A DNA stretch of 64,000 bases from Candidatus Melainabacteria bacterium 17Bon1m (GTDB lineage: Bacteria; Cyanobacteriota; Vampirovibrionia; Obscuribacterales; Obscuribacteraceae): positions 856,974 through 920,973 of the forward strand of contig JAVLKG010000003.1 in NCBI GenBank assembly GCA_032128875.1. Reading direction: 5' to 3'. The position numbers and the translations under genes were made by a program. The notes under the pieces are model-generated. The model did no database searches, was not told the origin of the DNA, and worked only from the letters and a program-made list of their open reading frames with translations. This document shows positions 7,912-55,219 of the stretch, one piece after another (within the stretch, counting starts at the first letter, position 1; every line of letters begins with the position of its first letter).

Positions 7912-9054
7912 TTAAAAATCCGTACCTGGAGCTTTCTGCCCATCAGGAGCAACGCCGGATGGAATTGTACCAGGCTGCCCGATGTATCCACCGCCGCCGC
8001 CATTGCCTTGACCGCCTTGCGGCTGTTGCGCACCGCCGGAACCGCCACCCTGCGGCTGTCCTCCGCTCTGGAACATCTGGTTACCGGGTATGAAGGAACC
8101 CTTCTGCGAAACGTCTGGAATCAGAGGTTGTTCTGGTTGTTGGTCTTGCTCTTCTTCCTCGGCGCCGGCTTTAGTTCCTCGTTTGGCGAATCGTCTGCCG
8201 CCGTTTCTATCGACCCGATCGGCGTCATCCATCGGGGAGTCCAGGACAGAAGTGCTTCCTGCCGCAGCCGCAATGCCCATTTTGAATGGCGCATCGATTC
8301 TGATTGAAAGAGGAGAGCCCGCCAGTATCCAGAGATTGTAATTGCGCTTTACCAGCGACCGGACATGAGACATGCCGGACATTTGAGTTCCCGCTTGACT
8401 GTTGCCGTAAATAGGATCTCGCATGATCTCCTGTGGCGTTACGACCTTTGGCGCCTGACCAGGCTTGGTGCGGAATCTTTGCGCCGCCCCCGGAGCGACC
8501 GCTTCAAAACCAGCCTGGGTGCCCACATAGGCTATACCATGCCCCAATTTTGTGTTGGCGCGCTCCATTCCACGACCGCGTCCGCGTCCGCCTCCTTGCG
8601 CCTGCGTTTCACCCGCTAACGACGCCACCATTGGATATGTCACGCCGTCTGGGGTTCTTAGTCCGGAAAGCTGCACTCTCAGCTGACCGGTCGGCTTTGG
8701 AAAACCTTTCTGGCGCGGCAGTTTGCTCGATGAAATGCATTCCACAACTTCACCGATTACTGAGGAACCCGCTGGAATTAGGACGTCGGTGCCGTTCGCT
8801 AGTACCGGCGATGAAACTTCAACTTCAAAACGCTCTCCCGGCTTGCTGCACGACGAGCCGATTGTATGGTCGATGCGCCCTTCAAAGTGAACCCCTATAG
8901 GAATGATCACTGTCTTGCCGTGCATCGTGTGCGCAGCGCGGTACAGGCTGTCGGCCGACTGATTTCGCTGCGCTTCCGCCGGCTTTAGTAAGCCGAAGCC
9001 AGATCCAGTCAGAGCCGCGATGCCCAGAGCGAATAATGCAGTTTTTGTCTTCAT
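7912..9054 (-). CDS. TrbI/VirB10-like exported protein with a Gln/Gly-rich tail
   Basis: Signal peptide 'MKTKTALFALGIAAL' (ATG 9054; track start 9069); 'IPIGVHFEGRIDHTIGS...GERF.VEVSSPV....VLIPAGSSVIGEV...GQLRVQLSGLRTPDG' and 'ILAGSPLSIRID' resemble the TrbI/VirB10 beta domain. Confidence 0.55.
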   Translation of the reverse strand: MKTKTALFALGIAALTGSGFGLLKPAEAQRNQSADSLYRAAHTMHGKTVIIPIGVHFEGRIDHTIGSSCSKPGERFEVEVSSPVLANGTDVLIPAGSSVIGEVVECISSSKLPRQKGFPKPTGQLRVQLSGLRTPDGVTYPMVASLAGETQAQGGGRGRGRGMERANTKLGHGIAYVGTQAGFEAVAPGAAQRFRTKPGQAPKVVTPQEIMRDPIYGNSQAGTQMSGMSHVRSLVKRNYNLWILAGSPLSIRIDAPFKMGIAAAAGSTSVLDSPMDDADRVDRNGGRRFAKRGTKAGAEEEEQDQQPEQPLIPDVSQKGSFIPGNQMFQSGGQPQGGGSGGAQQPQGGQGNGGGGGYIGQPGTIPSGVAPDGQKAPGTDF

Positions 9055-9138
9055 CTCGAAAGCCCTCAAAGAGGCATTTGTTTTAATCGATGTAACTTAG
9101 TGTAGATCAGGCTTGAGCGATTTTGCTCGCGGCGGCGT

Positions 9139-11709: not shown

Positions 11710-11724
11710 TGCCGTTTTGCCCGT

Positions 11725-13611
11725 CTACTCTTTTTCCACTTCTCTCAGTTTCTTCATGACCTTTTCAATGTCTTTGGCGTCAGCTCCCATCTTCTGCATG
11801 CATTCCACAAGCTTTTTCAACGGCATCACCAAGTGCGGAGCTACCGTTGTCGCTTCTTTCCAACTGGACGCGGCACCTACCCAGTTACCCGCGGCTTCTT
11901 GTTTCTCGGCTTCTGCTTTGAATGGCTGAATCCGTGAAAGATCGACCTGATTCATCGCATCTTTTGCATCTGGGTCTTTTAAATTGAAAGCCATGCGATA
12001 TGCGACAGAAGCTTCATCAAGATTTCCTTTCTTTTCGTTAGCTCGTCCGAGATAGAACCAAGCTCTAGCGTCTTTAGGGTCTTTCTCAATTAAAGCGTCC
12101 GCTTCCTTTTTAGCCCCATCGCTATCATTTGCGGCCATCTTGCTTTCGATAGGAATCAGCCGTCTGGGGTCCAGAATTTTTTCCAGTGGAGCAGTCGCTA
12201 TCGGTGGAACACTCGCTGCAGCGACAGCGCCACCACCTGCGGGGGCGCCAGGTTTGGCTCCAGCGGCACCCGCTACAGCCCCCGCTCCAGCTATTGCTGG
12301 CGCCGGTCCGCCACCCAGGCGGCTTATGCCTTGAAGCAAATCGGGATGTACATGTGGATTGATTGATGCGGCTGCTTGATACGCTTTAAGCGCAGTCGCT
12401 TTGTCGCCTTGCTGCTCCTTACCCCTGCCGTATATGAAGAGCATTTCCGCATCTTGGTTGTTTTGACGAAGGATGTCTTCGGCTTTTTGCAAAGATGTAG
12501 CCAGCACTGCCGGCGGTGTCGCAGGGTTCATGACCACGGCCAGATGATAAGAACGGCGAGCCTTGGCCAGCTGAGGCGAATTAGGGTTTTTCTTCCAGCA
12601 TTCTTCGAATTCCATTTTTGCGTGTTCGAAGTCGCCTGATAATTGATAGGCACCGGCCAACATCAAATGGTTGTCGAATGAACCATTGATGGAGACAGCT
12701 TCACGAGCGACTTCTTTAAGTCCTTGTATGGCGTCCGAATAGGCCGGATTCAACGTAACTGCACGGCGATATGAAACAGCAGCATTCTGAAGACGCTTCA
12801 AGCCTGTCTGACGGTCACCTCTGTCGCGCGCTACTTTTGCGTATCGCCAAAGGGTGTCGCCCAACATCGTATGGCACTTAGCCTGTTCAATCTTGTCCTT
12901 CCAGGGTTTGTTGATGGCAATCTTCAGTTCTTCAAATGCAGCTACGTCTTGTCCGTCCTTTAGAAGAGAGCGGGCTAAATCGGCGTGGCTTGTGCCATCG
13001 TCAGTCATACGGCAAACTTTTCTGTATTCGACTTGTGCCGTGCGGAAACGTCCTTCTGTTTCGGCAGTTTCTGCTATCTGGTGGCGAACATTCGGGTCAT
13101 CGGCGTTTTTCCCGGATGCACGCAAGCACTCATCAAGGTTTCTGTCCGCCACTGCGTTGGCGGGGTCGGCGAATAGAGCCTTTCTATACTGGACCATTGC
13201 TTCGTAGTATTTTTTCTTCGATGCGAGCATATCGCCATAACGAAGACAGGCACCAGATAAATTGATTTTGAATTGTTCGTTATAAGGATCGCCTTCAAGC
13301 GCAATCTCGTGCTCGCGTATGGCATCAGCCCAGAGATTCTTGCTCCCCAGCTCAACTGCACGGTTGTTGTGCTCGAGCGGGTTTGTCGGGTTCGGCGTTG
13401 ACAGCATCACTCCGCCACCGCCGCCTCCTCCTGACGGAGCCGCACGTCGAGCGCCTTTAGCTAGACATTCGGGTTGGGCCCATATATAGGAAAGCGAAAG
13501 AGACAAACACAGAACGGCCGCAAGTTGCTTCTTGGAGCAGCTCAGGCTCATGGTTTCGCGCGATTGTCTCGGGGATGAATTGAATTTCAATGAACGAATA
13601 TAAAAGGACAT
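11725..13611 (-). CDS. Exported multi-TPR protein with Gly/Ala linker
   Basis: Signal peptide (alternative start 13551); TPRs 'AWFYLGRANEKKGNLDEASVAYRMA', 'YGRGKEQQGDKATALKAYQAAASINP'. Confidence 0.88.
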   Translation of the reverse strand: MSFYIRSLKFNSSPRQSRETMSLSCSKKQLAAVLCLSLSLSYIWAQPECLAKGARRAAPSGGGGGGGVMLSTPNPTNPLEHNNRAVELGSKNLWADAIREHEIALEGDPYNEQFKINLSGACLRYGDMLASKKKYYEAMVQYRKALFADPANAVADRNLDECLRASGKNADDPNVRHQIAETAETEGRFRTAQVEYRKVCRMTDDGTSHADLARSLLKDGQDVAAFEELKIAINKPWKDKIEQAKCHTMLGDTLWRYAKVARDRGDRQTGLKRLQNAAVSYRRAVTLNPAYSDAIQGLKEVAREAVSINGSFDNHLMLAGAYQLSGDFEHAKMEFEECWKKNPNSPQLAKARRSYHLAVVMNPATPPAVLATSLQKAEDILRQNNQDAEMLFIYGRGKEQQGDKATALKAYQAAASINPHVHPDLLQGISRLGGGPAPAIAGAGAVAGAAGAKPGAPAGGGAVAAASVPPIATAPLEKILDPRRLIPIESKMAANDSDGAKKEADALIEKDPKDARAWFYLGRANEKKGNLDEASVAYRMAFNLKDPDAKDAMNQVDLSRIQPFKAEAEKQEAAGNWVGAASSWKEATTVAPHLVMPLKKLVECMQKMGADAKDIEKVMKKLREVEKE

Positions 13612-13938: not shown

Positions 13939-14165
13939 TAGTCATTTCGCAGGCATTTTTGCCCAATTTCGCCCCGATTCACTAAAGGGAGATTAATTCG
14001 CTTTTATTCTGTTAGTATGAAACCAAGATCACATATATAGCCTCTAAGTATTTTGGTATCTCTTTTTTGTTATTTGGCGTTTTCTTACTAGGCAAAAGAG
14101 GCATGTGTTCAGAGAGGGCTCGTAGAGCCCGAGATAGATATCTCCCTTGGGAGGGATATTTAGTA

Positions 14166-15041
14166 ATGACAAAGCCTGCGCCACTTTTGGCAGCATTTAT
14201 CGTTTTGGGGCTTACGGTTCCAATGGCATACGCTCAGCTTCCGCAGACGAATATGGGCAAGTACGTCCACAAGCCGGGCGACAACCAGTATGACAAAGCC
14301 GCGCAATCAGAGCGGCATCCACCGCCCCCACCTCCCGTGACTCGATTCGCGACAAGCGGCGGAGGAGGCGGAGGTTACATGTACCGCCCAAAACCAAAAC
14401 CACGTAAGCCAGACCCTTCAATAGAACCAATCGCCTCAGACGAGCCTGTGCCGCCTGCGGGCTTTCCAGTTTTACCGGAAAGATTGGAATTGCCCATCGC
14501 TATGGGTAGCTGGGGAGGAGCTGGAGGCGGCGGTGGTGGCGGCGGCTCCTGGAGCGGCGCCCCTCAAGGCGGCGGTGCCAGCGACGACGGACCGCCCAGA
14601 ATGCTTTCTAAGAAGCAAGGCTACGGGCACTTCGAGCCTGGCGCTTTCATTCCGAAGAATCATAAGTCCGGATACTACAAGTGCAACGAGGTGACTCCTC
14701 CGCACAAGCAAGTCTCCGACCAGATCATGACCGGCAACGGTGGTGGCGGAGCTGTACCTGGTTTGGGTGGACCGCCCAGCCCGGCAGGAGCTCTTAAATC
14801 GTTGGGCAGAGAGCCCAAGTTGAACGATCGCGAAGATGGCGCCACTGCTCCGGATGCTCCGCAGCCGGTGGTGATCAATCAGTCGACGACACAAGACCTT
14901 TCACTTCCTGAGGATGATTTCTCAGGCAGCTCGGCAAAACGTCCGAGCAAGGTTGGCAGAAAAATGAGGCAGGTAGGTCGAAGAGTTGTTTCTCCAATCA
15001 ACTCGGCATCACGCAGATTTACCGGAATAAGTTTGTTCTAG
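14166..15041 (+). CDS. Exported Pro/Gly-rich low-complexity protein
   Basis: GGAGG RBS before ATG 14166; signal peptide 'MTKPAPLLAAFIVLGLTVPMAYA'; poly-P and poly-G tracts; basic C-terminus. Confidence 0.75.
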   Translation: MTKPAPLLAAFIVLGLTVPMAYAQLPQTNMGKYVHKPGDNQYDKAAQSERHPPPPPPVTRFATSGGGGGGYMYRPKPKPRKPDPSIEPIASDEPVPPAGFPVLPERLELPIAMGSWGGAGGGGGGGGSWSGAPQGGGASDDGPPRMLSKKQGYGHFEPGAFIPKNHKSGYYKCNEVTPPHKQVSDQIMTGNGGGGAVPGLGGPPSPAGALKSLGREPKLNDREDGATAPDAPQPVVINQSTTQDLSLPEDDFSGSSAKRPSKVGRKMRQVGRRVVSPINSASRRFTGISLF

Positions 15042-15060
15042 GTTTTTCCAGATACTAATC

Positions 15061-15083
15061 GGCTGCCGGAAGTCCGGACAGCC
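15061..15083 (+). other. Intergenic GC-rich hairpin
   Basis: GGCTG-CCGGA...TCCGG-A-CAGCC between the first two genes of the operon. Confidence 0.35.
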
Positions 15084-15110
15084 AATGGCTCGGGGGAAGG
15101 AGTTCTCAAA

Positions 15111-15797
15111 ATGGCTAAGTTAGTAAAAACAATGAGCTTGATAGTGGCAGCCAGTGCGTCCGTGGCTGTTTGCGCTGCACCATCAATGGCACAGGGTTTC
15201 AAAATCGATCAAAGAAAGCTGGACAAGACCACTTTCTACAGCGCGCCAAGACAAATGCAAATCTTGGACGAACGCCCGATCATCAAAGATTTCCGTGAAG
15301 CACCACAAGCCCAGCAGCAAATTGAGTTGCCACCTGGACCTCAAGGTTATGGTGGTGGCGGCGGCGGTGGCGCCGGCGCATTGCAAGGCGGCGGACCCGG
15401 CGGCGGACCGAATGGCGGTCCATTGCAAATGGGTGGACCAAGCGTGCAACCCAGAACCAGCAACGGCATGATGCCCAATATGGGTAGCTTGCCTAAAACA
15501 GGTTTTGGTCAGACAAATATTCCGGCACGCGGCATGGGACCGAAAGGACCTTTGGCAGATGCAACCAGCACCAACCGTTTGATGGGCAAAATGATGACTC
15601 CGCCCAAATCTCAAGGTGCTTCCGCCGGACCGGCTCGCGGCATGGCGCCGACGAAAGGACCGTCCAACGGTAATTATGCAGGACCGGCTGTTTCGTCCTA
15701 CAGCGGCGGATACGGCAATGGCTCGGGCGCCGGATTCGGCGGCAGCTCGTCCCGCACGGATACATCGGTTAGAGGAAGTCTTTTGAAGAGAAACTAA
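15111..15797 (+). CDS. Exported Gly/Pro/Met-rich protein
   Basis: AAGGAG RBS; signal peptide ending 'APSMA'; short ordered segment 'FYSAPRQMQILDERPIIKDFREAP', then low complexity. Confidence 0.8.
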   Translation: MAKLVKTMSLIVAASASVAVCAAPSMAQGFKIDQRKLDKTTFYSAPRQMQILDERPIIKDFREAPQAQQQIELPPGPQGYGGGGGGGAGALQGGGPGGGPNGGPLQMGGPSVQPRTSNGMMPNMGSLPKTGFGQTNIPARGMGPKGPLADATSTNRLMGKMMTPPKSQGASAGPARGMAPTKGPSNGNYAGPAVSSYSGGYGNGSGAGFGGSSSRTDTSVRGSLLKRN

Positions 15798-15833
15798 TAC
15801 ACTCACAAGCTAGAAAGCGCACACCACCCCCTT

Positions 15834-17822
15834 ATGCAACACACCCAAACAATTTCCAAATTCGCAGCGCTTGCCCTGACGCTGGCTTTGACTGGCTGTG
15901 CCAGACAAGAAGCCGGCAGCGGCGGCGCCTCTGCGCAAGGAATTGAGCAAGTGCAGGGACAAGGGATTTTGAACGCTTTGAGACCGAAAGCGGATCCCTC
16001 GATGGTGGAGCGTATTCGCCAGGAAGACGCAAACAGAATGCAGCAGGCGGCCCTCGCCCAGCAGCAGATGAACCAGCAAATGTCCGAGACTGACGGTTCC
16101 GGAAGGATCCTTCCTAAAGTCTCGATGGAGCCCATTGCTCCCCCGGCTGAAGAAGTTGCCTCAGCCGGTGCGGGCATGAGTGTGTCGGCTGATTCCGGTG
16201 CTTACACACCAAGCACTTCCGGCGCCGTTCCTCAAGCAGCAGGCATGACAGCGACTCCGGCTACTGCCAGCTATGGCAGCTACCAGGCATCGCAAGTGCC
16301 CGCTCCTCCGTCCGGTGCTCTCGGCGGCGGATTGGTTCCGCCACCACCAGCAGTGACGCTATCAACGACGGCGCAGACGACAGTCGCTAGCAACCCTGGT
16401 GCAGATCCGAATAATCCGTACGGAAATCCATATGGCAATCCGTATGCCAATCCATACGGCAACCCTTATGCCAATCCGTATATGAACCCATACGGTATAC
16501 AGTATCCGCAGCAGCAAGCGCAGCCCGCTGGTGACGGCGCCCCTCAAAGACCGGCTTTGTTTGGGTCTGGTAAGCGCACGCCGCGCGAAGAGTCTGAAGA
16601 AGATCCGGGCGCTCGCGAAAAAGCCAAGAAATTCGCCAATTTCGTGCCGATCACGCCGACCGGCATGGAAGCTCGCTCTCCTTACAAACAAAGAGACGAC
16701 TTGAGAGTGCTCTGGAAAGGTGCCATCGGCTCTGGAAGCTTGGGTGCCTGGTCTCAGAAAGACCCTAACATCGCCGCCTCTCTATCTCGTATCGATGTCG
16801 GACTGCCTGGTGAGTCGACCAAAGGTTCTTTCAGCGTCGGACCAAGACAAGTAGATGCAGTGTTCAAGCGGGTTTTCGTTGATAAGAGAATACAGCCTCA
16901 GCTGGTAAAAACTCAAAACGAAATGGTCCAGAGCTACTACCGTTATCTGTATTCATATAACCGATTTGCATTGTCTCAACAGACTGTAGCAGCAAGAAAA
17001 CAGGAAGTTGAAGTTGCCTCGTCGCACGCCGAACAACAAAGAGCGGCAGCCGATCTATCTCAAGCACAAAGTGAAGCAGACTCTTCAAAAGAAGACATGC
17101 GCTCGGCTCAGTTGGAGCTCGCTGCCGTAGCTGGTCCTCAAGCAGCTCGTGCAGTAATTCAAAAAGTGTCAGGTGTTTCGCCCACTATCGAATCGCTGGC
17201 TCAAGCCATGCCGGCACCGGAAGCCGCTCCGCAAGGTGGCGGATTCAATGTGCTTGGTTCGATGGGCAGCCTCTTTGGTTTCAACAAGAAAAAAGCGGAA
17301 GAAGGACAAGCTCCTGAGCCGGTCAAAGCCGCCAAACCAGATGAAGGCAAGAAAGAGAAAAACGCCGGCAAAACCAAAGAGAAAGAAACTAAAACCAAGA
17401 CAGCAAGCAAAGAAACCAAGCCCAAGAAAGGCGGCAAAGCCGAAGTAGCCCAAGGCGACCTCGAGCCTGCACCGTCCAAAGGTGAGTCACCCAGCGCCGC
17501 AGCACAGGCAGAAGCTCCGGCAGCATCGGACGGCATCTCCTTTGAACTCAAAGGCAAAAATATCAGCGCGCGCAAGAGCGTGCTAAATGTTTCTATTCGC
17601 AACTCGTCTGACAATGCTTTCAGCTTCAGCCCCGACGATATCTCCGTCCAGGAGGGCAATCAGAAGCTTTCGGAAGCAGCGATGCGCGCCGAATTCGACT
17701 CCACCAGCATTGCGCCAAATGGGGAAGTCAAAGGCACCATCACGATTTTCGGTAGACCCTGGAATGACAGGTTGACCATATCACTGTCAGACGGACAACG
17801 GAGCATCCATATGAAACGTTGA
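15834..17822 (+). CDS. Large lipoprotein with NPY(G/A) repeats, a helical/coiled-coil core and a C-terminal beta-sandwich domain
   Basis: Lipobox 'LALTGC'; seven NPYx units; long amphipathic helices; C-terminal 'LNVSIRNSSDNAFSFSPDDI...IAPNGEVKGTITI'. Confidence 0.8.
   Translation: MQHTQTISKFAALALTLALTGCARQEAGSGGASAQGIEQVQGQGILNALRPKADPSMVERIRQEDANRMQQAALAQQQMNQQMSETDGSGRILPKVSMEPIAPPAEEVASAGAGMSVSADSGAYTPSTSGAVPQAAGMTATPATASYGSYQASQVPAPPSGALGGGLVPPPPAVTLSTTAQTTVASNPGADPNNPYGNPYGNPYANPYGNPYANPYMNPYGIQYPQQQAQPAGDGAPQRPALFGSGKRTPREESEEDPGAREKAKKFANFVPITPTGMEARSPYKQRDDLRVLWKGAIGSGSLGAWSQKDPNIAASLSRIDVGLPGESTKGSFSVGPRQVDAVFKRVFVDKRIQPQLVKTQNEMVQSYYRYLYSYNRFALSQQTVAARKQEVEVASSHAEQQRAAADLSQAQSEADSSKEDMRSAQLELAAVAGPQAARAVIQKVSGVSPTIESLAQAMPAPEAAPQGGGFNVLGSMGSLFGFNKKKAEEGQAPEPVKAAKPDEGKKEKNAGKTKEKETKTKTASKETKPKKGGKAEVAQGDLEPAPSKGESPSAAAQAEAPAASDGISFELKGKNISARKSVLNVSIRNSSDNAFSFSPDDISVQEGNQKLSEAAMRAEFDSTSIAPNGEVKGTITIFGRPWNDRLTISLSDGQRSIHMKR
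16413..16496 (+). repeat. 12-bp coding tandem repeat x7 (NPYG/NPYA/NPYM)
   Basis: AAYCCNTAY-(GGN/GCC/ATG) units with synonymous divergence. Confidence 0.9.
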
Positions 17823-17826
17823 CCCG

Positions 17827-20535
17827 ATGAGAGATGAAGCGTTTGCAGATCCTAGACCGCGTGAAATTACTAGACCAACGCTCAATCAGGTAGTTTTGAT
17901 GAATAAGATGTCGAGCCAATTCAAACTGGTTACACTGGCAAATGGCCAAGCGCGAGCAGCAATCGCGCTTTGCGTGCTGTTTGCAGTTGCGATATTAGCC
18001 CTGCCGGCATTCTCGCAGGCTAATACTAATCAGTTTTTCCGTAATGCCGAAGGCACTATGGATGACTCCAACAACTCTACCGCGCAAACCATCCGCGATA
18101 TGGCTTGCTTGCGCTACAAGTGGCTGGACATCAACCGCAGATACGATCAACTGCGCACTATCAACGAGCAAGCGCCTACGACCACACCGTCAAGAAGACA
18201 AACGATTCCTGAAAAACGCGAGGAATTCATCACCGACGGACGCTCGGCAAGACAGCCACAAGCCGGCGAAACAAGAGTAAAAGAAACTGCTGATTCTACT
18301 GCGCAAACCAAAGTTCTCGCATACGACTCCTGCTTCGTTCCTTGCGGCAGCCCGGTCGGCTGGTTCTTGCAAGACGCAGAAGCCTGGAAGTTTCCCAAAT
18401 ACACAGCCTACGGTATTCCTTGCTATGTCCAGCCCCGCATGGAGGCCATGGACAAAGTTAAGACGACCAGAGACGAAGCCATCTTCGAGAAAGCGACAGG
18501 CTACAACCCGCCTGGTATGGGCCGTATCACCACGTTCGGTCTGCCGATGTCTGATACGCAATATCAGTTGATCGACAGAGAAAATAATAACCGGATGCTC
18601 GAGTTGCTTTCCGACCCCGAGCGCTTCATGTGGGCAGCTTCGGTAACCGGTCAGATGATGAACGGTTCCGGCGCCAACAGCCTTGCCGGTGTTGCAGAAA
18701 GTGCTTTCGACAACGCCGCCGCCCGGATTATTCAAGGTGACTCCACCAATTCGTTGATCAACCTTGCTAACGAAAATTCGGGGACCGGACCGAATCTCGG
18801 TTCTTACTATCGCCAAGTTTCCGATGCAGTGAGACAAGTTCAAATCATGTACCACCAGGTATATGTGCCGCTGGCAATTCTTTTCCTTTTGCCGGGCGCC
18901 GTCATCACGCAAGCAAAATCCATTGTGGCAGGCGGTTTTGCGCTGAGATCACCTGAAGCTCAAAGTCCATTCGATGGACTGTTGCGCTCCTTCGTCGCTA
19001 TTTTCCTTATCCCTGCGACTCAATTGATTGTCAGTTATGCAATCGACGTCGGCAACTCGATGGCGTATAGCGTTTACGATCCCTGGGTCAATATAGACAG
19101 AGTCAAAGAGTGGACTCACCAGCTCAGCTACAACAACAATCCACGCACAAATTACGACAACAGTATTTTGCCTCCTGAGCAAGGCGGCCAAAATCAGAAC
19201 GGACAAAGTGCCTGGGATAGAGCATTATCGGGCGATGTTTTCGGTGCGATCTTGCAATTCGTTATGGACTTGTTCGGTTACGGAGAAGGTTTGGGCGGAA
19301 ACGTTCCAGAAACCGTGACGATGGAAGAGCGCAATTCATGGCTGTCATCTATGTTGGAAACAGCTTTCAACTGGATGATGTGGGGTATGTCGCAAGGACT
19401 TATTATCCTGACGGCATTCCAGCTCGTCTTTATGTGCTACCTCTTCTTGCTTGGACCTCTGGCCGCTGCATTCTATGCTTGGCCGGATTTGCAGAATGAC
19501 GGCAACCAAAAGCTATTCCGTGGTGTTTTCGGAAGCTGGGTCAATGCCGTGATTTCGCTTGCTCTGTGGCGCTTCTACTGGATGGTGATTTTGGCCATCA
19601 TGACTCAGCGCCTCATCTACATATCGCAATCGCGGACGGCGACCAACTTACAGTGGGAAGTTGCTGTCTTCACGTGCTTGCTTGGACTGATGCTGCACGT
19701 GCCGTTTAGTCCGTTCAAATTCGACCCGGCTGCCGCGCTGGAAAAAGTGGAGAAATTCGCCAATAGCATGGGCGGCAGTGGCGGCGGTGGAGCCGGAGGC
19801 GGCGGTGGCGGTGGTGCCGGCGGCGGTGCCGGAGCCGGCGGTGGCGGCGGAGGCGGCGGCGGAATGCTGCAGCAGATGGCCAACCAGATCCAAAGCTCCA
19901 ATATGCCTGCCGGTGATAAACAGCAAGCCTTGCAAGCAATCAACCAGACTTCGGTCGGCTTGAATGCCTTTAGAGACGGACGTTTCGGTGGCTACGACGC
20001 CTTCAATGGAGGCGGCGGTATCAACATGGGCGGTGACCAGGGACAGGGAACCGGCCAGGGCCAGGGCACGGGGCAGGATATAACCCCACCTCTGGTCAGT
20101 AATCAAAATACGGCAAACATCAATGCAGCACTGGCCAGTAATGCGATCATGCCTCCGTCTTCGACAGGAATGGATACAGGCACTGGCACTGGCACTGGTA
20201 CCGGTACCGGCGCAGGCGTAGACCTGGCCGCCAACCGCGGACCGACATCCTCACCCGCCGATGCATCCGAAACTGGTTCTCGCATCAACCCAGGAGTTCA
20301 ACTTGCCGGTTACGTTCAATCGGCACAACAAAACGTCCAGGACATTGGTGCTCAATTGCGCGGTGCCGGTATGCCTGAGCAGCAAGTGCAAGACTTCATC
20401 ACCAAGAATAATCCGCAGCAAATGATAGCGGCGCTCGATCCTCAGGGCAGCGGTTTCTTCCCTTCCGGTGGAGGTGATGACAGCGGCCCGAGACGACAGG
20501 ATCGAAGACCAGATGATGACTCTGATACCGCCTAG
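17827..20535 (+). CDS. Polytopic membrane protein, VirB6/TraG-N-like (paralog 1), with a Gly-rich tail
   Basis: N-terminal signal/TM segment, soluble domain, ~5-6 TM segments with 'CYLFLLGPLAAAFYAWP...GSWVNAVISLALWRFYW' (VirB6-like 'L.GPL...W' pattern); lies upstream of the virB4-like gene. Confidence 0.65.
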   Translation: MRDEAFADPRPREITRPTLNQVVLMNKMSSQFKLVTLANGQARAAIALCVLFAVAILALPAFSQANTNQFFRNAEGTMDDSNNSTAQTIRDMACLRYKWLDINRRYDQLRTINEQAPTTTPSRRQTIPEKREEFITDGRSARQPQAGETRVKETADSTAQTKVLAYDSCFVPCGSPVGWFLQDAEAWKFPKYTAYGIPCYVQPRMEAMDKVKTTRDEAIFEKATGYNPPGMGRITTFGLPMSDTQYQLIDRENNNRMLELLSDPERFMWAASVTGQMMNGSGANSLAGVAESAFDNAAARIIQGDSTNSLINLANENSGTGPNLGSYYRQVSDAVRQVQIMYHQVYVPLAILFLLPGAVITQAKSIVAGGFALRSPEAQSPFDGLLRSFVAIFLIPATQLIVSYAIDVGNSMAYSVYDPWVNIDRVKEWTHQLSYNNNPRTNYDNSILPPEQGGQNQNGQSAWDRALSGDVFGAILQFVMDLFGYGEGLGGNVPETVTMEERNSWLSSMLETAFNWMMWGMSQGLIILTAFQLVFMCYLFLLGPLAAAFYAWPDLQNDGNQKLFRGVFGSWVNAVISLALWRFYWMVILAIMTQRLIYISQSRTATNLQWEVAVFTCLLGLMLHVPFSPFKFDPAAALEKVEKFANSMGGSGGGGAGGGGGGGAGGGAGAGGGGGGGGGMLQQMANQIQSSNMPAGDKQQALQAINQTSVGLNAFRDGRFGGYDAFNGGGGINMGGDQGQGTGQGQGTGQDITPPLVSNQNTANINAALASNAIMPPSSTGMDTGTGTGTGTGTGAGVDLAANRGPTSSPADASETGSRINPGVQLAGYVQSAQQNVQDIGAQLRGAGMPEQQVQDFITKNNPQQMIAALDPQGSGFFPSGGGDDSGPRRQDRRPDDDSDTA

Positions 20536-20597
20536 AGTTTCCAGCGGCAGACAGGAAGCTCTCAAAGATTTACAGAACGCGTGAGGATGGATCTCAA

Positions 20598-23500
20598 ATG
20601 ATTGGAAGAAGAAAAACGGCATCAACGTTTAAAGCGCGGCTAACGCTAGTGCTGCTTCTCATCGGATTCGTACCGATAGCTGCCATGGCGCAATCGCCAA
20701 ATGTCGGCGCCGGCGGAGGCACGGGAGATTCTCGTGACGGCAACCCCGGTTCTGCCTCACTGACATTGAAGCAATTCTACTACCGGATGAAGAACGCCCA
20801 GACTTATTCCACCACCGAATATGGTGGCACCGACGTATTGCAGAACGTCGGAGGATCTCAGGGCATTTCCAGATTTACCAATGGTCTTAGCAATCTCGTC
20901 CAGGGCAATGTCCGCGGGGCACTTCAGGCTGCTACCGGTCAAGACGGTCGCGGTCCGAAAGAATCTGTCGGACCTGGTATCGTTAAAACCCAGTCTGGTC
21001 CTACTTTTGCATGGCCCGTGCCGGTGCCTCCCGGCATTCCTTCGACAGTGCCCACGAAGCGCGACGAAGGTATCAACAAAAACGAACTGAAGACTTTCGG
21101 CTATCCCGTTTCTGATACGCAGTTCCAGCTCATCCAACGCTACAACCAGAACATCATGCTGGAACAGCTGTCCAATCCGGAACGTTTCATGTGGGCAGCC
21201 AACACCTTGGGCGGCTTGTCATCGAACGCCGCTGCAAACTCAGCCAACAACATGGCTACCAACCAAGCAATCAGTGCAATTGATTTCAGTAAGAAATATC
21301 TGGTCAACTTTACTGCCGAACAAGGCAACGTATGGCACCGCCTGCGCGATCAATTGTTTATCCCGATGGCAATTCTCTTGCTTTTGCCCGGCGCAGTGCT
21401 TGCGCAAGTGAAGGCGATTGTTGCTCAAGGCTCGCCATCGTGGGCACAAGCAGATAGTCCTATTGAAGGTATTACCCGCTCTATTGTTGCTGTTTTCCTG
21501 ATTCCTGCAACCTTCCTTGTCATCAACTACGGTATCGACGTATCCAACTCGATCACGTTCACGATTGCCGATGAGTACAAGAGAATTTTTGGCACGGACA
21601 TGTATGAGGATGCGATTTGCCACGAGAAACGAGCGATGGCGATCAACCCGGCCAACCGCAAGGAAAACGCTATCCATGAGGAAGAAAGACCAGTCAATAG
21701 AGGCGGCTCGGTATGGTCGTCCTTTGAAGGCTTGAACTCGACCGTGCGCGAATATGACCCCTGCTTGGGCGTAGACAATACACGTGTACCTGACGAAAAC
21801 GTCGTACAAGCGAAGAACTTCAACCGCCTGGCTAAGGGGATGGCCAACACCGGATTGACCGCTGCCTGGAACATTATGAGTGCGTTCCAGATGGCTTATC
21901 TCTATTATCTGTGGTGCATGGGACCGATAGCAGCAGCCCTGTGGGTCTGGCCGATTGGACCGATGCGCGGTGCTCTCAGAAGCTGGATCGAAGGCGTTAT
22001 CACGCTGTGTTTCTGGAGCTTATTCTGGAACACCACTGTCTTGCTGCTTGCTTGCTTCAAGGGGGTCGGCGACGACGGTTCGGTTATCGTCACCGCTTTG
22101 AATACACTTGCAAACTTGTCGGTTAAGAAGGCATTCGACTTCGCTGGTTTGATCGCTGAGGCCGGTAGTGCGGCATCTGCAGAAATGCAGAAGTCCATGG
22201 CTGGTGGTGGCGGCGGCGGTGGCGGCAGTCGAGGCGGCGGTGGTGGCGCCGGCGGTGCTGGTGGGCAAGGTGGACAGGGAACACCTGGGCGCAGTGCAAG
22301 CGGACCGGGAGGCGGTCAAGGACTCGTTTCAGGACCTGGCTCTGGTCAAGGCTCGGGCGACATCGGTCAAGGTGGAGGAGCATTGGCTCTGTCGCCTGCC
22401 GGAGGCGATCTCACCAGTGGAGCTCTCACTCCTCGCGGTGGTGCCGACATCGATCCACTTACCGGACTGCCGAGAGACGGCAGTGTGCCGGGCGTAGATC
22501 CCGGCCTGCCTCCAGGCGAGCGCGGTACAAATATGGGTATGCGTGGAGGCGCCGACGCTACCACCGAAGCAGCTGCATTGGCGGCTCTGGGTGCTGCGGG
22601 CAGACCTCCATCCGACCAAGAGCGTCAGATGTTCGACAACGTCAAACGCATGGACGACGCCGGACACCCTGCTGCGACCGCACTTGTAGAATCGCTTTCA
22701 CGCACGCAGCCAGGCGATCTTGCCAAAGCGATGGACGGCGATGCCGATGCGGCTGCTCGTATCAGATCCGCAACCGGTATGGACGCCAAGACGCTCAACG
22801 ACGGCTTACGTGGAGACTCCGCCGCGATGATGACTGCAGCAGCAGTTGTAGGCGCTGCCGGATCAGCCGGGGCCGCCGGATCTCTTCTGTCTCGCGCAGA
22901 GCAAGGCGATGCTGGTGCCAGGGCACAATTGGAAAGCCGCACCGGTATCAACCCCGATACACTCATACGTGCTGCGCAGGGCGACCAGGGCGCGCAAATG
23001 GCTGTCATGGCGAGAGCCGGACAGGATGGATCCGTACAAGCTGCAGCCCAAGGCGGCGACCGAGTGTGCGCTGATGCGGTTCGTGCTGCAGAGATGACCT
23101 ACGCTCGCAACGGTGTCACCGGCGACTATACGCAAGTAGCCGCTTACGACCCGCAGACGGGTGTATTCTCAGCTGCGGACGCTCAAGGCAATATCTTGCG
23201 CAATGCTGATGGCACTGCCCAAATATCCTTCGACCAAGCTAGTGGTGGATATCAGACTAGAGACGGCGCGGGCGTTACCTACGACGCCGGCTCCGGACAA
23301 TGGCTCGCTCGCGACGCCAATGGTTCTGCCGCTGGTGGCATCGTCTACGATGTTAACGACGGGCGGTTTGCGGTTGCCGGAACAGGTGCTGCGGTCAACT
23401 ATGAAAATGGAAACTTCGTTGCCGCAGGTACCAACGGAAATGTTGTCTGGGATGCTCAAGCCAATCGCTTCCAGGACGGCGGCGGCAATGCTGTCATGTC

Positions 23501-25916
23501 CGATCCGGGCGGCTCTGGACAATGGTTCCGCGTGGCTCAAGATGGTCAGAGCATCGAGCGACTGGCCGGTGGAGCACAAGGACAGGGCAGCTGGGAAAGA
23601 GTTTCCGGTGCTGCACCGATGGAGGTCAAAAACGGCGAGGTCATCGCCGCAGGCACCAATGGCAATGTCGTGTTCGACACTGCGCAAGGCAGATTCGAAG
23701 CCAGAAATGTCGATGTCGGAGTGCAATACGACCGCGGTTCCAATCAATGGTATGCACAGGGCGCATCCGGTCAGGTCGCATACTCTGTGGACGCTGGTCA
23801 GTTCAAAGCCACGGGCACCAATGAAGGAGTCACGTATTCCGGTGGTCAGTGGTCCGTGGACAACACCGGCGGCCGCGTAGTTCTTGATGCGGCGCAAGGT
23901 CGCTATGAAGTGGCTGGAGGCAACGCTGCTGTAGCCTACGACAGAACCAGCAATGGTTGGGTTGCGGCGGACACCGGCGGCCAGATCAGATTCGACCGCC
24001 AAGACATGCGCTTCGAAAATAGTTCTGGAGCCGTCGCTGTCGCTGATCCCAACGGATCGGGCAGATGGTATGCCCCATCAGCTGATGGCAGTTCCGTCCA
24101 AGTGCTCTCGCCTGCCTCGAGCGGCTCGGCCACCTGGTCGGCCGCAGGAGCTGATGCGCCTGTTTCACTGCAAGGCGGAACATTCGTCGCACAAGGATCC
24201 GGCGGTCAAGTCTTCTACGATCAGCAAGCCGGTCAATGGGAATTGCGTCAGCCAACCGCTCAGGGTGGCTTCATCGATACCAATATCGCGATGGCTAGAG
24301 ACTCTGCATCGGGCAACTGGATGGCAGCCGGAACAGGAGGCCAGGTCGTTCTCGATCCTGCCTCCAGACAGCTGGAAATCTACGGCACCAATACGCCTGT
24401 TGCACGCGACAATACAGGAACTTTCGTTGCGGCCAACACCGGCGGTAGTGTCATTCTCGACACTCAAAATGCCGGCGGTCCTCGATGGGAAGTGCGCGGC
24501 GCCGATGTCGCTCTCACACCCACTCCTAGTGGACAATGGACGGCAGCGGACAGCCGCGGAGCGGTCGTTTGGGATGCTCAGCAAAATCGATTCGAGCAAG
24601 CCGGTACAAATGTGGCAGCTTACCGAGATCCAGGCGGTTCCGGTTGGTACTCCGTGGCAGCCAACGGCATGGTCACGCAGTTGCAGCCAGACAATCAGTG
24701 GAGATCGGTCGATCCGGCGACTGCGCCGATTCGCGTCGATCAAGGTGGTGTCATCAGCGCCGCTTCGTCCAACGGCATGATCACATTCGACCAACGCGAC
24801 AACCGTTGGGAGCTGCAAGGTGGTCAACCGGTTCAGTACGACTCGAGAACTCAGCAATGGGTCGCTCCGGAGACGGGCGGCCGCGTAGCCTACGACTTCA
24901 ACGACAGGAGACTGGAAGTGGTCGGCTCCAATGGTGCCACCACCAATGTGCCGGTAGTTTCAGACCCGAGCGGTCGCAGCTACTACGCCTTCGGTGCAAA
25001 CGGAGACGTAAGGCAGCTCGATACGACAGCCGGCTCGTGGAGACCACTCGATGCAACGTCGTCGGTCGGCTACACGCAAAGCGGACAGATCTACTCGACT
25101 GCATCCATCGCGCCAGGCGATGCAACACGTACTCCGCAGGTCATGTACGACACGCAACAGGGTGCATGGACTGTGGCGAACAACCCGAATCCATCAGCCA
25201 ACGGTGTAGCTGTAACGCAGTCTGGAAGCGGCTTCTATGCGGAAGGCACGGGACGGCAAATCGAATATGATTTGAACAACCGCCGCTTCGAGCTGGCTGG
25301 CTCCGACAGACCGGTCGAGTTTCAGCGCGGTACAGGATGGACATATGCAGGCACCGGTGAGCAGGTCGCACTGCGGACGCCGGACGGTGGATGGACTGCC
25401 GGAACGCACGCCTCTACAGACCCGAGCAGGGTCCAGCAAGGCTACGATCCATTCTGCAACCCGACTCACCACCAGGGCGGATACACACCTGATCCTACAT
25501 ACGGCCACAGATTCCCCGACTGGAGAGCCGACGTCGGTGAAATGCGTGGTGGAGAACACATGGATGTGAGAAGCCCTGATGTGAGCGCTCACATCGGACC
25601 TGGACATGCCCATGTCGACGTCCATACACCTGGCTTCCAAGCTCACGTAGACACGCCGACTGGCGGCATCATGGATGCTCCCAGAAGAATGGATCCGACA
25701 GGAGGCACTGCAGGTAAGGCCATAACAGCTGCCGGTGTCGGAGCCGCTATCTGGCAACAGTGGTCCAATATAAGCAATCGCATGAATCGCGGACAACAAG
25801 GACCGGCTCAGTCACTTCAAGATATGATGCGCAAGGGTGGAGGCTCGCAGCGCAAGAAGGACAACCGCAAAATAATCGGCTATGACGAATACGGCAATCC
25901 GATTTATAAAGACTAG
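20598..25916 (+). CDS. Giant VirB6/TraG-N-like membrane protein (paralog 2) with a long beta-hairpin repeat region
   Basis: 1772 aa; membrane core clearly homologous to 17827-20535; then a Gly-rich linker, an Ala-rich helical block and ~760 aa of 'V.YD...G.W/F' repeats. Confidence 0.7.
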   Translation: MIGRRKTASTFKARLTLVLLLIGFVPIAAMAQSPNVGAGGGTGDSRDGNPGSASLTLKQFYYRMKNAQTYSTTEYGGTDVLQNVGGSQGISRFTNGLSNLVQGNVRGALQAATGQDGRGPKESVGPGIVKTQSGPTFAWPVPVPPGIPSTVPTKRDEGINKNELKTFGYPVSDTQFQLIQRYNQNIMLEQLSNPERFMWAANTLGGLSSNAAANSANNMATNQAISAIDFSKKYLVNFTAEQGNVWHRLRDQLFIPMAILLLLPGAVLAQVKAIVAQGSPSWAQADSPIEGITRSIVAVFLIPATFLVINYGIDVSNSITFTIADEYKRIFGTDMYEDAICHEKRAMAINPANRKENAIHEEERPVNRGGSVWSSFEGLNSTVREYDPCLGVDNTRVPDENVVQAKNFNRLAKGMANTGLTAAWNIMSAFQMAYLYYLWCMGPIAAALWVWPIGPMRGALRSWIEGVITLCFWSLFWNTTVLLLACFKGVGDDGSVIVTALNTLANLSVKKAFDFAGLIAEAGSAASAEMQKSMAGGGGGGGGSRGGGGGAGGAGGQGGQGTPGRSASGPGGGQGLVSGPGSGQGSGDIGQGGGALALSPAGGDLTSGALTPRGGADIDPLTGLPRDGSVPGVDPGLPPGERGTNMGMRGGADATTEAAALAALGAAGRPPSDQERQMFDNVKRMDDAGHPAATALVESLSRTQPGDLAKAMDGDADAAARIRSATGMDAKTLNDGLRGDSAAMMTAAAVVGAAGSAGAAGSLLSRAEQGDAGARAQLESRTGINPDTLIRAAQGDQGAQMAVMARAGQDGSVQAAAQGGDRVCADAVRAAEMTYARNGVTGDYTQVAAYDPQTGVFSAADAQGNILRNADGTAQISFDQASGGYQTRDGAGVTYDAGSGQWLARDANGSAAGGIVYDVNDGRFAVAGTGAAVNYENGNFVAAGTNGNVVWDAQANRFQDGGGNAVMSDPGGSGQWFRVAQDGQSIERLAGGAQGQGSWERVSGAAPMEVKNGEVIAAGTNGNVVFDTAQGRFEARNVDVGVQYDRGSNQWYAQGASGQVAYSVDAGQFKATGTNEGVTYSGGQWSVDNTGGRVVLDAAQGRYEVAGGNAAVAYDRTSNGWVAADTGGQIRFDRQDMRFENSSGAVAVADPNGSGRWYAPSADGSSVQVLSPASSGSATWSAAGADAPVSLQGGTFVAQGSGGQVFYDQQAGQWELRQPTAQGGFIDTNIAMARDSASGNWMAAGTGGQVVLDPASRQLEIYGTNTPVARDNTGTFVAANTGGSVILDTQNAGGPRWEVRGADVALTPTPSGQWTAADSRGAVVWDAQQNRFEQAGTNVAAYRDPGGSGWYSVAANGMVTQLQPDNQWRSVDPATAPIRVDQGGVISAASSNGMITFDQRDNRWELQGGQPVQYDSRTQQWVAPETGGRVAYDFNDRRLEVVGSNGATTNVPVVSDPSGRSYYAFGANGDVRQLDTTAGSWRPLDATSSVGYTQSGQIYSTASIAPGDATRTPQVMYDTQQGAWTVANNPNPSANGVAVTQSGSGFYAEGTGRQIEYDLNNRRFELAGSDRPVEFQRGTGWTYAGTGEQVALRTPDGGWTAGTHASTDPSRVQQGYDPFCNPTHHQGGYTPDPTYGHRFPDWRADVGEMRGGEHMDVRSPDVSAHIGPGHAHVDVHTPGFQAHVDTPTGGIMDAPRRMDPTGGTAGKAITAAGVGAAIWQQWSNISNRMNRGQQGPAQSLQDMMRKGGGSQRKKDNRKIIGYDEYGNPIYKD

Positions 25917-25921
25917 CAATT

Positions 25922-25956
25922 AGAGGAAAGGGCGGCATTGCGCTGCCCTTTCCTTT
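25922..25956 (+). terminator. Probable intrinsic terminator/hairpin
   Basis: AGGAAAGGGCGGC-ATTGC-GCTGCCCTTTCCT (one G-U pair) immediately after the stop; short T tail. Confidence 0.6.
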
Positions 25957-26141
25957 GAAAAAGTCAGCTAGGGACTGTACAAAACAAAAAAAGTCCATAC
26001 AATGCGGAAAGACCTATTTGACCATGGTCTTCCAAATTCAAGCAAAATAAGCAAGCCAAGCAAATAACATATGAAAAGCCGCAGGAGGAGAGGCATCTCT
26101 TTCCTGCGGGTATTAATATAGATAGATGGTGGTCAGAGTCC

Positions 26142-27161
26142 ATGGACATGTTGTTAGCTGAAGTAGGAGTCAGGTGCGATCGTTGCGGAACCTCATTTGT
26201 TTCGCGTCAATTGCCGACCTTTATTGATATCGGACATCGCAATTCGGAATTGCGCCAGGATTATCGCGGCTATCAGCCGATGATGGAGCAATACGCAATT
26301 ATCAGCTGTCCGAGTTGTGGGCGTGCCGATTGGTCTACCGAGTTTCCTCCGGTGCCTGGCACGCCTGTTTTGGCTCAAGCTTCCACCAGCGCGCATATGC
26401 AATACAGGCAGGCCGCGCTCGACAAAGAGCGCAATGCCGGCAGCATCAACTCCTTTAAGGCTGCAGTTTTTTATGTGCATGCCGCTTGGTGTGCCGACGA
26501 CAGCAAGGCGTTTCCGCAGGCTCGAGAGTACAGACGGCTAGCCGTAGAGTCTTATAAACGCTCGCTTTCCGACAATACCTGCCCTCAAGATTCACGCGGC
26601 GAGACTGAATATTTAATTGGCGAATTAATGCGCCGCGCCGGAGACTTCGAAGGGGCTCGCGATCATTTCCGCATGTGCATCGGGCGCTTGAATGCTCGAT
26701 TTGCATTTATGGCTCGAAAGATCATGCGCCTTTGCGAACAAGGCAGCACCGAGTCCATCCAATTCGAAGCCGACACCCTGATGCAGTCCTCCGTGGCCTC
26801 TTCCGGCTCGGCGGTAGGCGCTCCGCTGGGCGTTTCGGCTCCGGTAGCTCCGGCTGGCGCGCCGCCTAGTTCTGCACCGCCCAGCCCGCGTGCTTCATAT
26901 TCGGGACCGCCAGCTGGTGGCCCGCCTGGTTTTTCCGGCGCACCACCTATAGGGCAATCTCAGTCGTCTCATCAGTCTCAGCCGCCTCGTCAATCGCAGC
27001 AGTCGGTGCCTGCGGCTTCCCCGGGGGCTTCGCGCTCCTCGACCAATTTGCCAAGTTCTCCGGGCGGACCGCCGGTCGGACCGCCAGGGTCGAAAAAGGG
27101 CGACTCGAAGCCGAAAGGTCCTCCTACTCAGCCCCCGCCAGGCGCTCCGCCCTTGGCTTAA
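26142..27161 (+). CDS. DUF2225-like Zn-finger/TPR protein with a Pro/Ser-rich tail
   Basis: 'VRCDRCGTSF...SELRQDY...YAIISCPSCG', 'HAAWCADD', 'YLIGELMRRAGDFEGARDHF'. Confidence 0.75.
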   Translation: MDMLLAEVGVRCDRCGTSFVSRQLPTFIDIGHRNSELRQDYRGYQPMMEQYAIISCPSCGRADWSTEFPPVPGTPVLAQASTSAHMQYRQAALDKERNAGSINSFKAAVFYVHAAWCADDSKAFPQAREYRRLAVESYKRSLSDNTCPQDSRGETEYLIGELMRRAGDFEGARDHFRMCIGRLNARFAFMARKIMRLCEQGSTESIQFEADTLMQSSVASSGSAVGAPLGVSAPVAPAGAPPSSAPPSPRASYSGPPAGGPPGFSGAPPIGQSQSSHQSQPPRQSQQSVPAASPGASRSSTNLPSSPGGPPVGPPGSKKGDSKPKGPPTQPPPGAPPLA

Positions 27162-27218
27162 GTTTTCCAATCAAGGCAAAATGATGTTAGGTCCGAAACT
27201 GCAATAAGGAGTTAGTTC

Positions 27219-27620
27219 TTGGGTTACGTCCAGCGAGTGATCATCCTCAACAAGCCGCTTAAGGTGTTCGGTTTCGAACCCCGGCAGCTGATATTGCTAT
27301 CAGTTTGGGTTGTTTCCGGATTGATCATTGCCGGTCGCTTTCCTCAGGACTGGAAATTCCATAATTTCCCTATTGGCGTGTGGTTTTTCATCCTCTGGAT
27401 GTGCGGTGCCGTGGCTGTTGTTATGGGCACCCGACTGAAGCCCTTCTCTTGGTGGAAAAATATCCTCACGTACAGGTTGGGCTTGGCTCCTAATCTCTAT
27501 GTTTCACGCGCAGAACCCGCTCCGATCTATCCAGATGGGAATATAATTGAGGTTAAAAAAACTAAAGAAAACTTCTATGTCCAAGCTGAAAACACAACTG
27601 CAGACCCGGATGACTTCTAG
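27219..27620 (+). CDS. PrgI/VirB3-like two-TM protein
   Basis: AAGGAG RBS with TTG start; 'KPLKVFGFEPRQL' followed by two TM helices and 'KPFSWW...P.LYV'; directly upstream of the VirB4-like ATPase. Confidence 0.7.
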   Translation: MGYVQRVIILNKPLKVFGFEPRQLILLSVWVVSGLIIAGRFPQDWKFHNFPIGVWFFILWMCGAVAVVMGTRLKPFSWWKNILTYRLGLAPNLYVSRAEPAPIYPDGNIIEVKKTKENFYVQAENTTADPDDF

Positions 27621-27708
27621 AAGTCCGGTTTTTCAATTGGTCAGCGCCCAATCAAGTTCTTGAGACCGACCCGGCAGAACACCCAGGAAACCCGAGACAG
27701 GAAACCCA

Positions 27709-55179: not shown

Positions 55180-55219
55180 GTATTAAGACAGCGAAACTAA
55201 ATCAAGAAAACCAAAGCTC

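Follow-up and report, generated by a model that had tools for sequence, protein, structure and literature searches.

A gene of Candidatus Melainabacteria bacterium 17Bon1m encodes a protein of 1772 amino acids (aa) in which a polytopic membrane core, predicted to resemble VirB6 and DotA of type IV secretion systems (T4SS), is followed by a large hydrophilic extension (aa 531-1772, ~1240 aa) that carries a hierarchical array of short β-hairpin repeats, 766 residues long (aa 845-1610). The gene lies at 20598..25916 on the + strand (one open frame in the open reading frame list, with its translation) of the stretch of DNA analyzed here, the window, which comprises 64,000 nucleotides (nt) of the forward strand of contig JAVLKG010000003.1 (GCA_032128875.1, positions 856,974-920,973). 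The closest known kind of protein is the 'extended VirB6' subtype (Rickettsiales, F-type TraG). For the repeat itself no described family is detectable, and we interpret it as a repeat domain of a new type attached to an extended VirB6 subunit. By analogy with solved VirB6 and DotA assemblies, the tail would exit the core toward the periplasm and form a rigid fiber or spacer rich in aromatics, probably displayed in five copies, a tentative proposal to which we give a little less than an even chance.

The array (23130..25427, +; nt 23130-25420 correspond to aa 845-1608) was delimited with a hidden Markov model (HMM) of the unit, a sequence logo, autocorrelation and an AlphaFold2 (AF2) model. 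Within aa 845-1610 there are 24 copies of the motif [VILMA]x[YFWL][DES], compared with 4.4 +/- 2.0 copies (maximum 11) in 1000 shuffles of the same region, and the BLOSUM autocorrelation has maxima at lags of 36 (z 6.8), 145 (6.2), 18 (6.0) and 181 (4.2). Moreover, an HMM of the double unit, seeded with five clear units and then run to convergence, finds 20 double-hairpin modules of ~36 aa each between aa 845 and 1587, and the whole array is made up of ~40 short β-hairpins. The logo, drawn from 188 units of 10 orthologues, reads [VI]-x-[YFWL]-D-x-x-x-G-R-[WF]-E-x-x-G-x-N-x-[PA]-V-x-Y-D-x-G-G-Q-W-x-A-x-G-T-G-G. In this 36-aa module both alternating unit types are the two halves, and the true unit is therefore 16-18 aa long (period 18). 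One face of the hairpin bears the conserved V, Y/F/W, W and A, and the other bears D4 (93%), R9 (63%) and E11 (69%); judged from this pattern, the array is a putative amphipathic ribbon.

Above the module level, four markers, each a DPxGSG-type variant of the YD...W half-unit, open one super-repeat apiece, as defined by marker and alignment. On the + strand, super-repeat 1 spans aa 963-1143 (23484..24026; marker SDPGGSGQWF at nt 23502), super-repeat 2 aa 1144-1337 (24027..24608; ADPNGSGRWY at nt 24045), super-repeat 3 aa 1338-1449 (24609..24944; RDPGGSGWY at nt 24627) and super-repeat 4 aa 1450-1610 (24945..25427; SDPSGRSYY at nt 24963). The four align in register with identities of 23-40%, and the first two contain about five double units each. 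At the DNA level, Tandem Repeats Finder detects no tandem array within 23130-25420 apart from a trivial 23-nt match, and a direct-repeat search gives only matches of 20-48 nt at 71-90% identity; the duplications are therefore old. A preliminary description of this DNA, made by a model from the sequence alone, had claimed a hierarchical array of ~760 aa on the 1772-aa protein, with four higher-order markers and with units so diverged in their DNA that the array had to be old, and all of this is borne out by the shuffles, the periodicity, the marker positions and the repeat searches. It had also seen two alternating types of short unit, which stand, although at 16-18 aa rather than the 13-16 aa then proposed.

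The AF2 model of the array was built on a 10-row alignment of orthologues (identity 47-87%) and has a mean predicted local distance difference test score (pLDDT) of 79.5 and a predicted template modeling score (pTM) of 0.63; it contains 78 strands, each ~4 residues long, but lacks real helices. The array is thus predicted to fold as one long antiparallel β-meander of four-residue strands. When this model is compared with the Protein Data Bank (PDB) by Foldseek, the top rows are Rhs cores (8qjd_B, E 1.3e-10), BT4663 double propellers and teneurins, and these matches reflect local hairpin likeness only, because the template modeling (TM) scores are 0.05-0.17 and the root-mean-square deviations exceed 20 Å. 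Also, a search of BFVD returns adenovirus fiber shafts and propellers with TM-scores of 0.05-0.18. Overall, no global fold match but only local ones were found in Foldseek PDB, in a second look in VIA, in a wide VIA search or in BFVD, where models above ~400 residues are unfavorable queries and the array query has 796. For this unfavorable 796-residue query, choline-binding or CROP-type solenoid chains are absent from the VIA matches listed, and the same listed matches include no Rhs chains. A feature search of the ESM Atlas with aa 845-1610 gave no usable match. The predicted structure, then, has no global counterpart among those found, which falls short of proving a new fold.

The presence of Rhs cores (8qjd_B again) and teneurins among the best PDB matches points to one alternative, in which the array would be a diverged Rhs/YD-type shell whose toxin-like cargo would be the last 160 aa of the protein. 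The size of an Rhs shell is comparable to that of the array, and the sole Pfam match in the whole protein is a weak one to RHS (PF03527, E 0.11, aa 1318-1335, 12.9 bits against a cut-off of 27.9). However, the TM-scores to Rhs chains are 0.07-0.10, the strands are just ~4 residues long, RHS_repeat has no match, and the C-terminal 160 aa match no family in Pfam or NCBIfam, so that such a shell appears most unlikely. The BT4663 double propellers suggest instead a string of small β-propellers, where each 36-aa double unit would be one four-stranded blade. The 36-aa period with four strands per unit suits this arrangement, as do the about five double units in each of super-repeats 1 and 2. Nonetheless, the charged face of the unit (D4, R9 and E11) would be unlike blades that pack on both faces, and we regard propellers as very improbable, if marginally less so than the Rhs shell.

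Sequence comparisons also leave the array without a name. Neither Pfam nor NCBIfam assigns a family to any part of the protein, the sequence models of RHS_repeat/YD, CW_binding and MORN have no Pfam match in it (for the CW_binding type, none at E <= 1), and a PDB sequence-profile search with the array alignment yields nothing beyond E ~1. A word-seeded search of 5.8e9 proteins found 11 relatives of 1552-2336 aa, and 1.84e9 cluster representatives, searched exhaustively with HMMER, contained 11 at E <= 1e-3, six of these at E <= 1e-30. The source names of the relatives are 'Candidatus Melainabacteria' and 'Candidatus Obscuribacterales'. All four full-length distant relatives (P0012, P0015, P0017 and P0018) have the same N-terminal membrane core, and the number of units is higher in more distant relatives, being 22 in P0010 and 26 in P0012. 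The two weakest HMMER relatives, P0019 (a DUF4097 toast-rack protein) and P0020 (a chitin-binding peritrophin array), were set aside as compositional because they have no matches to the unit HMM. In P0015 (2480 aa), the tail ends in a phage tip-attachment FNIII-A_GpJ domain (aa 2358-2473, 30.4 bits against a cut-off of 27).

Within the order, the array is present in 12 of 107 genomes (this genome counted), which have a single such gene each and represent three of 38 genera; the four congeners that are negative for it have a completeness of 64-86%. The 1772-aa protein has orthologues in eight congeneric genomes at 78-99% identity. In the eight full-length orthologous loci, all four markers are present in seven and three of the four in the remaining one (L006, by the strict motif). 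Pairwise alignments with six congeners contain 2-5 gap columns over 766 aa, and the ratio of nonsynonymous to synonymous substitution (dN/dS) of the array is 0.05-0.13 in the six comparisons, values that are approximate because dS is saturated at 1.3-1.9. The array is under purifying selection and its length is fixed within the genus. Long genes in the orthologous position in four other genera are without the hairpin unit, and at least three of them (L017, L018 and L019) carry Ala-rich helix-like motifs such as those that precede the array here, with a period of ~25 aa that is clearest in L017 and L018. The all-β AF2 model and the empty Pfam, NCBIfam and PDB profile searches agree with the earlier suggestion of a β-meander outside the named repeat families, whose proposed role as an adhesin, tether or substrate-docking fiber is a candidate function, and the comparison of repeat number across strains that had been proposed as a check gives a fixed architecture within the genus, with markers kept and few gap columns, and not a variable-number array.

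Regarding the membrane core, the conserved hydrophobic helical part covers aa 245-530 (21330..22187, +). Its AF2 model, from a 55-row alignment, has a pLDDT of 79.1 and a pTM of 0.69 and places helices at aa 245-278, 289-331, 404-448, 454-486, 495-512 and 515-535, in agreement with hydropathy. An insert after the second helix (aa 332-403) bears a pair of cysteines, both of which are present in seven of eight type-A paralogues and both of which are gone together in the eighth. In a Foldseek search with the core, TrwI/VirB6 of R388 ranked first (E 0.052, probability 0.96) and nothing reached E <= 0.001; a fold similarity of the core to solved VirB6 or DotA was thereby found. The core is consequently named VirB6/DotA-like by its predicted structure, not by sequence, since Pfam has no match in the 14 core sequences of this genome (the core described here plus 13 paralogues) or in 12 distant relatives. 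Across the phylum, of which 151 genomes were sampled (this one counted), Pfam TrbL likewise has no match at E <= 1e-5. A precomputed PF19478 label on the protein P0085 was not reproduced at E <= 0.1.

The core unit (~aa 160-570) is present in 14 copies in this genome, distributed over five loci and usually as an adjacent pair of two subtypes. Beside the array gene, its immediate upstream neighbor (17827..20535, +; 902 aa) has a type-B VirB6-like core with 37% identity over aa 163-564. This is the one among the 13 further paralogues that lies in the window; the other twelve are in the loci L011-L014 elsewhere in the genome (C1:533285-545349, C1:809080-814005, C1:921121-925579 and C8:230502-236275), six of them in one tandem run. 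Some copies are tail-less and all the tails are mutually unrelated; the same is true of the N- or C-terminal extensions of the paralogues taken together, none of which contains a Pfam family above cut-off. Among 62 tailed members, 61 are without any Pfam match and one has a sub-threshold collagen match. This collagen match and the FNIII-A_GpJ domain of P0015 are two hints that tails of this core family may carry modules of adhesion or extracellular type. With the whole protein as query, all but one of the 24 other family genomes (23) give matches, mostly to the core, as do two of three genomes of a sister family, and the 13 genomes searched from six further families within the class give none.

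The position of the tail relative to the membrane would depend on how the hydrophobic helices are arranged. In R388 VirB6, only the two N-proximal helices are described as lying in the membrane, with the bulk of the protein periplasmic (PMC12857230), and for DotA the described order is signal peptide, TMI, TMII, an extended domain with disulfides and then five hydrophobic helices (bioRxiv 10.1101/2025.06.23.660953). In the solved machines of both R388 and Dot/Icm, just the two N-proximal helices of VirB6/DotA span the membrane and the other hydrophobic helices form a periplasmic pentamer. If this arrangement is valid here, the tail would therefore lie outside the cytoplasm, and five copies of it would project from a central platform. 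The array may then serve as a rigid aromatic-rich spacer or as a contact fiber that binds envelope or target-cell material, and the paralogous cores with unrelated tails could provide alternative specificities. A signal-peptide-like N-terminus, the co-conserved cysteine pair of the insert and the FNIII-A_GpJ domain in the tail of P0015 support an extracytoplasmic tail. Also, VirB6-3 and VirB6-4 of Anaplasma are described as having C-terminal repeats that trypsin can reach on intact cells and that are thus surface exposed (PMC7648143).

Several observations weigh against this periplasmic placement or against the VirB6 assignment on which it depends. Pfam TrbL (PF04610) is absent from the protein, from the 13 paralogues and from the whole genome (the best E, 0.69, is found elsewhere), and a PDB sequence-profile search with the core gives no match. 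VirB2, VirB5, VirB10, VirB11 and the coupling protein are not recognized in the operon; a 385-aa protein 5 kb upstream (7912-9069, -) has only a weak TrbI/VirB10-like Pfam match (E 3.8e-4, below cut-off). The alignment behind the array model has 10 rows only. Moreover, classical biochemistry, as reported in PMC7648143, puts the C-terminus of A. tumefaciens VirB6 in the cytoplasm, and the same outcome is obtained here if the five hydrophobic helices are counted as spans, with the N-terminus out and the KK after helix 5.

This last count, which reproduces the classical VirB6 topology (PMC7648143), is the basis for placing the tail in the cytoplasm, where it would provide a scaffold for docking at the machine's base and recruit the DUF2225 protein, the VirB4-like ATPase or substrates. 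The absence of cysteines from the array is consistent with that location, and the two proposed partners, both probably cytoplasmic, are encoded just downstream. However, the later hydrophobic helices are periplasmic in the solved VirB6/DotA assemblies as they are described (PMC12857230, bioRxiv 10.1101/2025.06.23.660953), and the extended VirB6 tails tested so far are reported to be surface exposed (PMC7648143). We consider a cytoplasmic scaffold rather unlikely.

Positively charged C-terminal tails can act as T4SS signals, and another possibility is that the tail is cleaved and released, or translocated as effector-like cargo, with its basic C-terminus as secretion signal. A Lys/Arg cluster near the C-terminus is kept in this protein and in the relatives P0010, P0011 and P0012, the long Gly-rich linker could serve as a cleavage or hinge region, and release has been proposed for the extended VirB6 tails of Rickettsiales in PMC7648143. 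Nonetheless, the fixed length and strong constraint of the array suit a structural part equally well as cargo, and we see release as improbable. A topology in which two weak spans rich in G/A (aa 742-760 and ~1714-1732) would flank the array, making it a loop in the periplasm, was given low weight because P0012 is without the first span and the second is below threshold in this protein.

Returning to the periplasmic display of the tail, an extended form of that proposal can be put forward as a speculation that we think unlikely, although not as improbable as release. The array would be a self-contained β-meander fold not seen before, shown five-fold from a VirB6-like pentamer as the contact fiber of an undescribed, Obscuribacterales-specific class of T4SS, where it would replace the pilus or VirB5 tip. 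In such a machine the 14 core paralogues per genome would be interchangeable tail-fiber cassettes that set target specificity.

With regard to the rest of the protein, aa 1-32 (20598..20693, +) form a signal-peptide-like segment by hydropathy, with RRK..K..R, a hydrophobic stretch whose maximum is at aa 13-31 (Kyte-Doolittle 2.16) and a putative cleavage site between AMA and Q. The core is followed by a Gly-rich linker, of low complexity by composition (aa 531-640; 22188..22517, +), with glycine accounting for 29% of aa 520-700 and a GGN tandem repeat in the DNA at 22206-22257, and then by an Ala-rich segment, also recognized by composition (aa 641-844; 22518..23129, +), which contains helix-like repeats of ~25-28 aa (with motifs such as TG.D..TL...L.GD) and a weakly hydrophobic stretch at aa 742-760 (hydropathy 1.45). 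After the array, the C-terminal tail (aa 1611-1772; 25428..25913, +), read from its sequence, has His-rich H.DV and H.DV..P motifs, a weakly hydrophobic G/A-rich stretch (AGKAITAAGVGAAIW) and a basic Lys/Arg cluster (RKGGGSQRKKDNRK). Its identity between congeners is 67-94%, and it might bind metal, associate with the membrane or act as a secretion signal. The protein ending ...GYDEYGNPIYK is kept in congeners. The array contains 2 Lys against 45 Arg. In the part of the window from 22001 to 26000, the G+C content is 0.58-0.61 over the tail-coding part versus ~0.50 in most of the window, a rise that fits the Gly/Ala/Arg-rich, Lys-poor composition.

The array gene belongs to a run of genes (14067-31635) that are all on the + strand with short gaps, in the order of two Gly/Pro-rich proteins, a 662-aa LTGC protein, the two VirB6-like paralogues, a DUF2225 protein, a 133-aa protein, a VirB4/TraC-like ATPase and two small proteins. 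The three genes at the head of this operon (14067-17822, +) are without family match. Their products, the first two being Gly/Pro-rich proteins of 324 and 228 aa with N-terminal hydrophobic segments and the third the 662-aa protein, in which a lipobox-like LTGC is read from the sequence, are candidates for unrecognized envelope parts of the machine. Downstream of the array gene, the DUF2225 protein (26142..27161, +; 339 aa; Pfam E 3.4e-11) precedes the 133-aa protein (27219..27620, +), which has hydrophobic helices at aa 24-42 and 52-70, matches no family in Pfam or NCBIfam, and lies directly upstream of the VirB4-like gene, being VirB3-like by position and shape only. The VirB4/TraC-like ATPase (27709..30546, +; 945 aa) matches Pfam P-loop_TraG (E 3.5e-18) and, in NCBIfam, CD1110 (E 4.7e-57), TraC (E 5.2e-55) and VirB4_CagE (E 3.6e-41), although none of these three NCBIfam matches reaches the cut-off of its family; its best match in a collection of 72,556 plasmids has ~23% identity. 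These VirB3-like and VirB4-like genes are thus 1.3-1.8 kb downstream of the array gene and on the same strand. The last two proteins of the operon are small and have N-terminal hydrophobic anchors.

A second VirB4-like/DUF2225 locus is located elsewhere in the genome (C1:801091-814005), where a DUF2225 paralogue adjoins the second VirB4-like gene together with a pair of core paralogues. Among the genes of the window none was recognized as a relaxase, coupling protein, VirB2, VirB5 or VirB11, and the flanking genes are of housekeeping type (RimM, riboflavin synthesis and DNA ligase). The locus looks like a chromosomal, lineage-specific T4SS-like machine of Obscuribacterales rather than a clear conjugative element. 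Two large TPR proteins are encoded immediately ahead of the operon on the other strand (9955-13611, -), and farther along the window two adjacent paralogous DUF4388 + GGDEF genes encode proteins of 547 and 532 aa (53536-56818, +).

According to a 2025 review (PMC12857230), the contribution of the extra domains of extended VirB6 proteins to T4SS structure and function is not yet known. The present locus is a second, independent case of extended VirB6, outside Rickettsiales, in a lineage of non-photosynthetic relatives of cyanobacteria, the Obscuribacterales. Its tail is a large, strongly constrained domain that is confidently predicted to be ordered, not a low-complexity stretch, and is therefore suited to expression and structure determination. 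The locus also reveals an unannotated protein family, with 14 copies here and members in 23 of the 24 other sampled genomes of the taxonomic family, which is linked to the very divergent VirB4 (~23% identity at best among the 72,556 plasmids).

Finally, the likeness to known systems can be considered at the level of the repeat and of the whole protein. The literature searched holds nothing on a β-hairpin repeat on VirB6, and for Obscuribacter and VirB4 it yielded only the T-type T4SS of Vampirovibrio, which is unrelated. The array resembles Rhs/YD shells, choline-binding/CROP solenoids, MORN, OCRE and adenovirus fiber shafts in its short hairpin units, conserved aromatics and Gly turns, and, as in the array, the short units of CROPs are punctuated by a longer marker unit. 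However, the similarity to these hairpin-repeat folds is local in the 3Di alphabet, with TM-scores of just 0.05-0.18, and RHS_repeat, CW_binding and MORN are unmatched in Pfam.

The protein as a whole has in common with extended VirB6 a polytopic core, a matching fold, a VirB4-like gene in the neighborhood and a large extension, whereas the TrbL sequence match is missing. In the Rickettsiales case, exemplified by Anaplasma phagocytophilum VirB6-1 to VirB6-4, PMC7648143 likewise describes several tandem paralogues with polytopic cores and with large hydrophilic extensions at the N- or C-terminus, a very long C-terminal repeat domain in one of these paralogues, and genes beside virB3/virB4. In contrast to Rickettsiales, the core here is unrecognized by Pfam TrbL and the host is a member of Obscuribacterales, which have large genomes (7.55 Mb here) and are not small-genome obligate intracellular bacteria. 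Moreover, the tandem 3' repeats of Anaplasma are described as varying in number by strain (PMC7648143), whereas the 18/36-aa hairpins of the array are ancient and diverged, with a copy number fixed within the genus. DotA of the Legionella Dot/Icm system and TrwI/VirB6 of R388 share with this protein a signal-peptide-like start, two long helices, a Cys insert and further hydrophobic helices, although sequence identity is ~10-12%, with no sequence-level match, and the extra domain described for DotA (bioRxiv 10.1101/2025.06.23.660953) is an internal insert rather than a C-terminal tail of 1240 aa. Compared with the F-type system, the VirB4-like ATPase here is only ~23% identical to TraC; F-type TraG combines, as this protein does, a VirB6-like core with a large C-terminal domain, which in TraG is described as serving cell-cell contact (PMC7648143).

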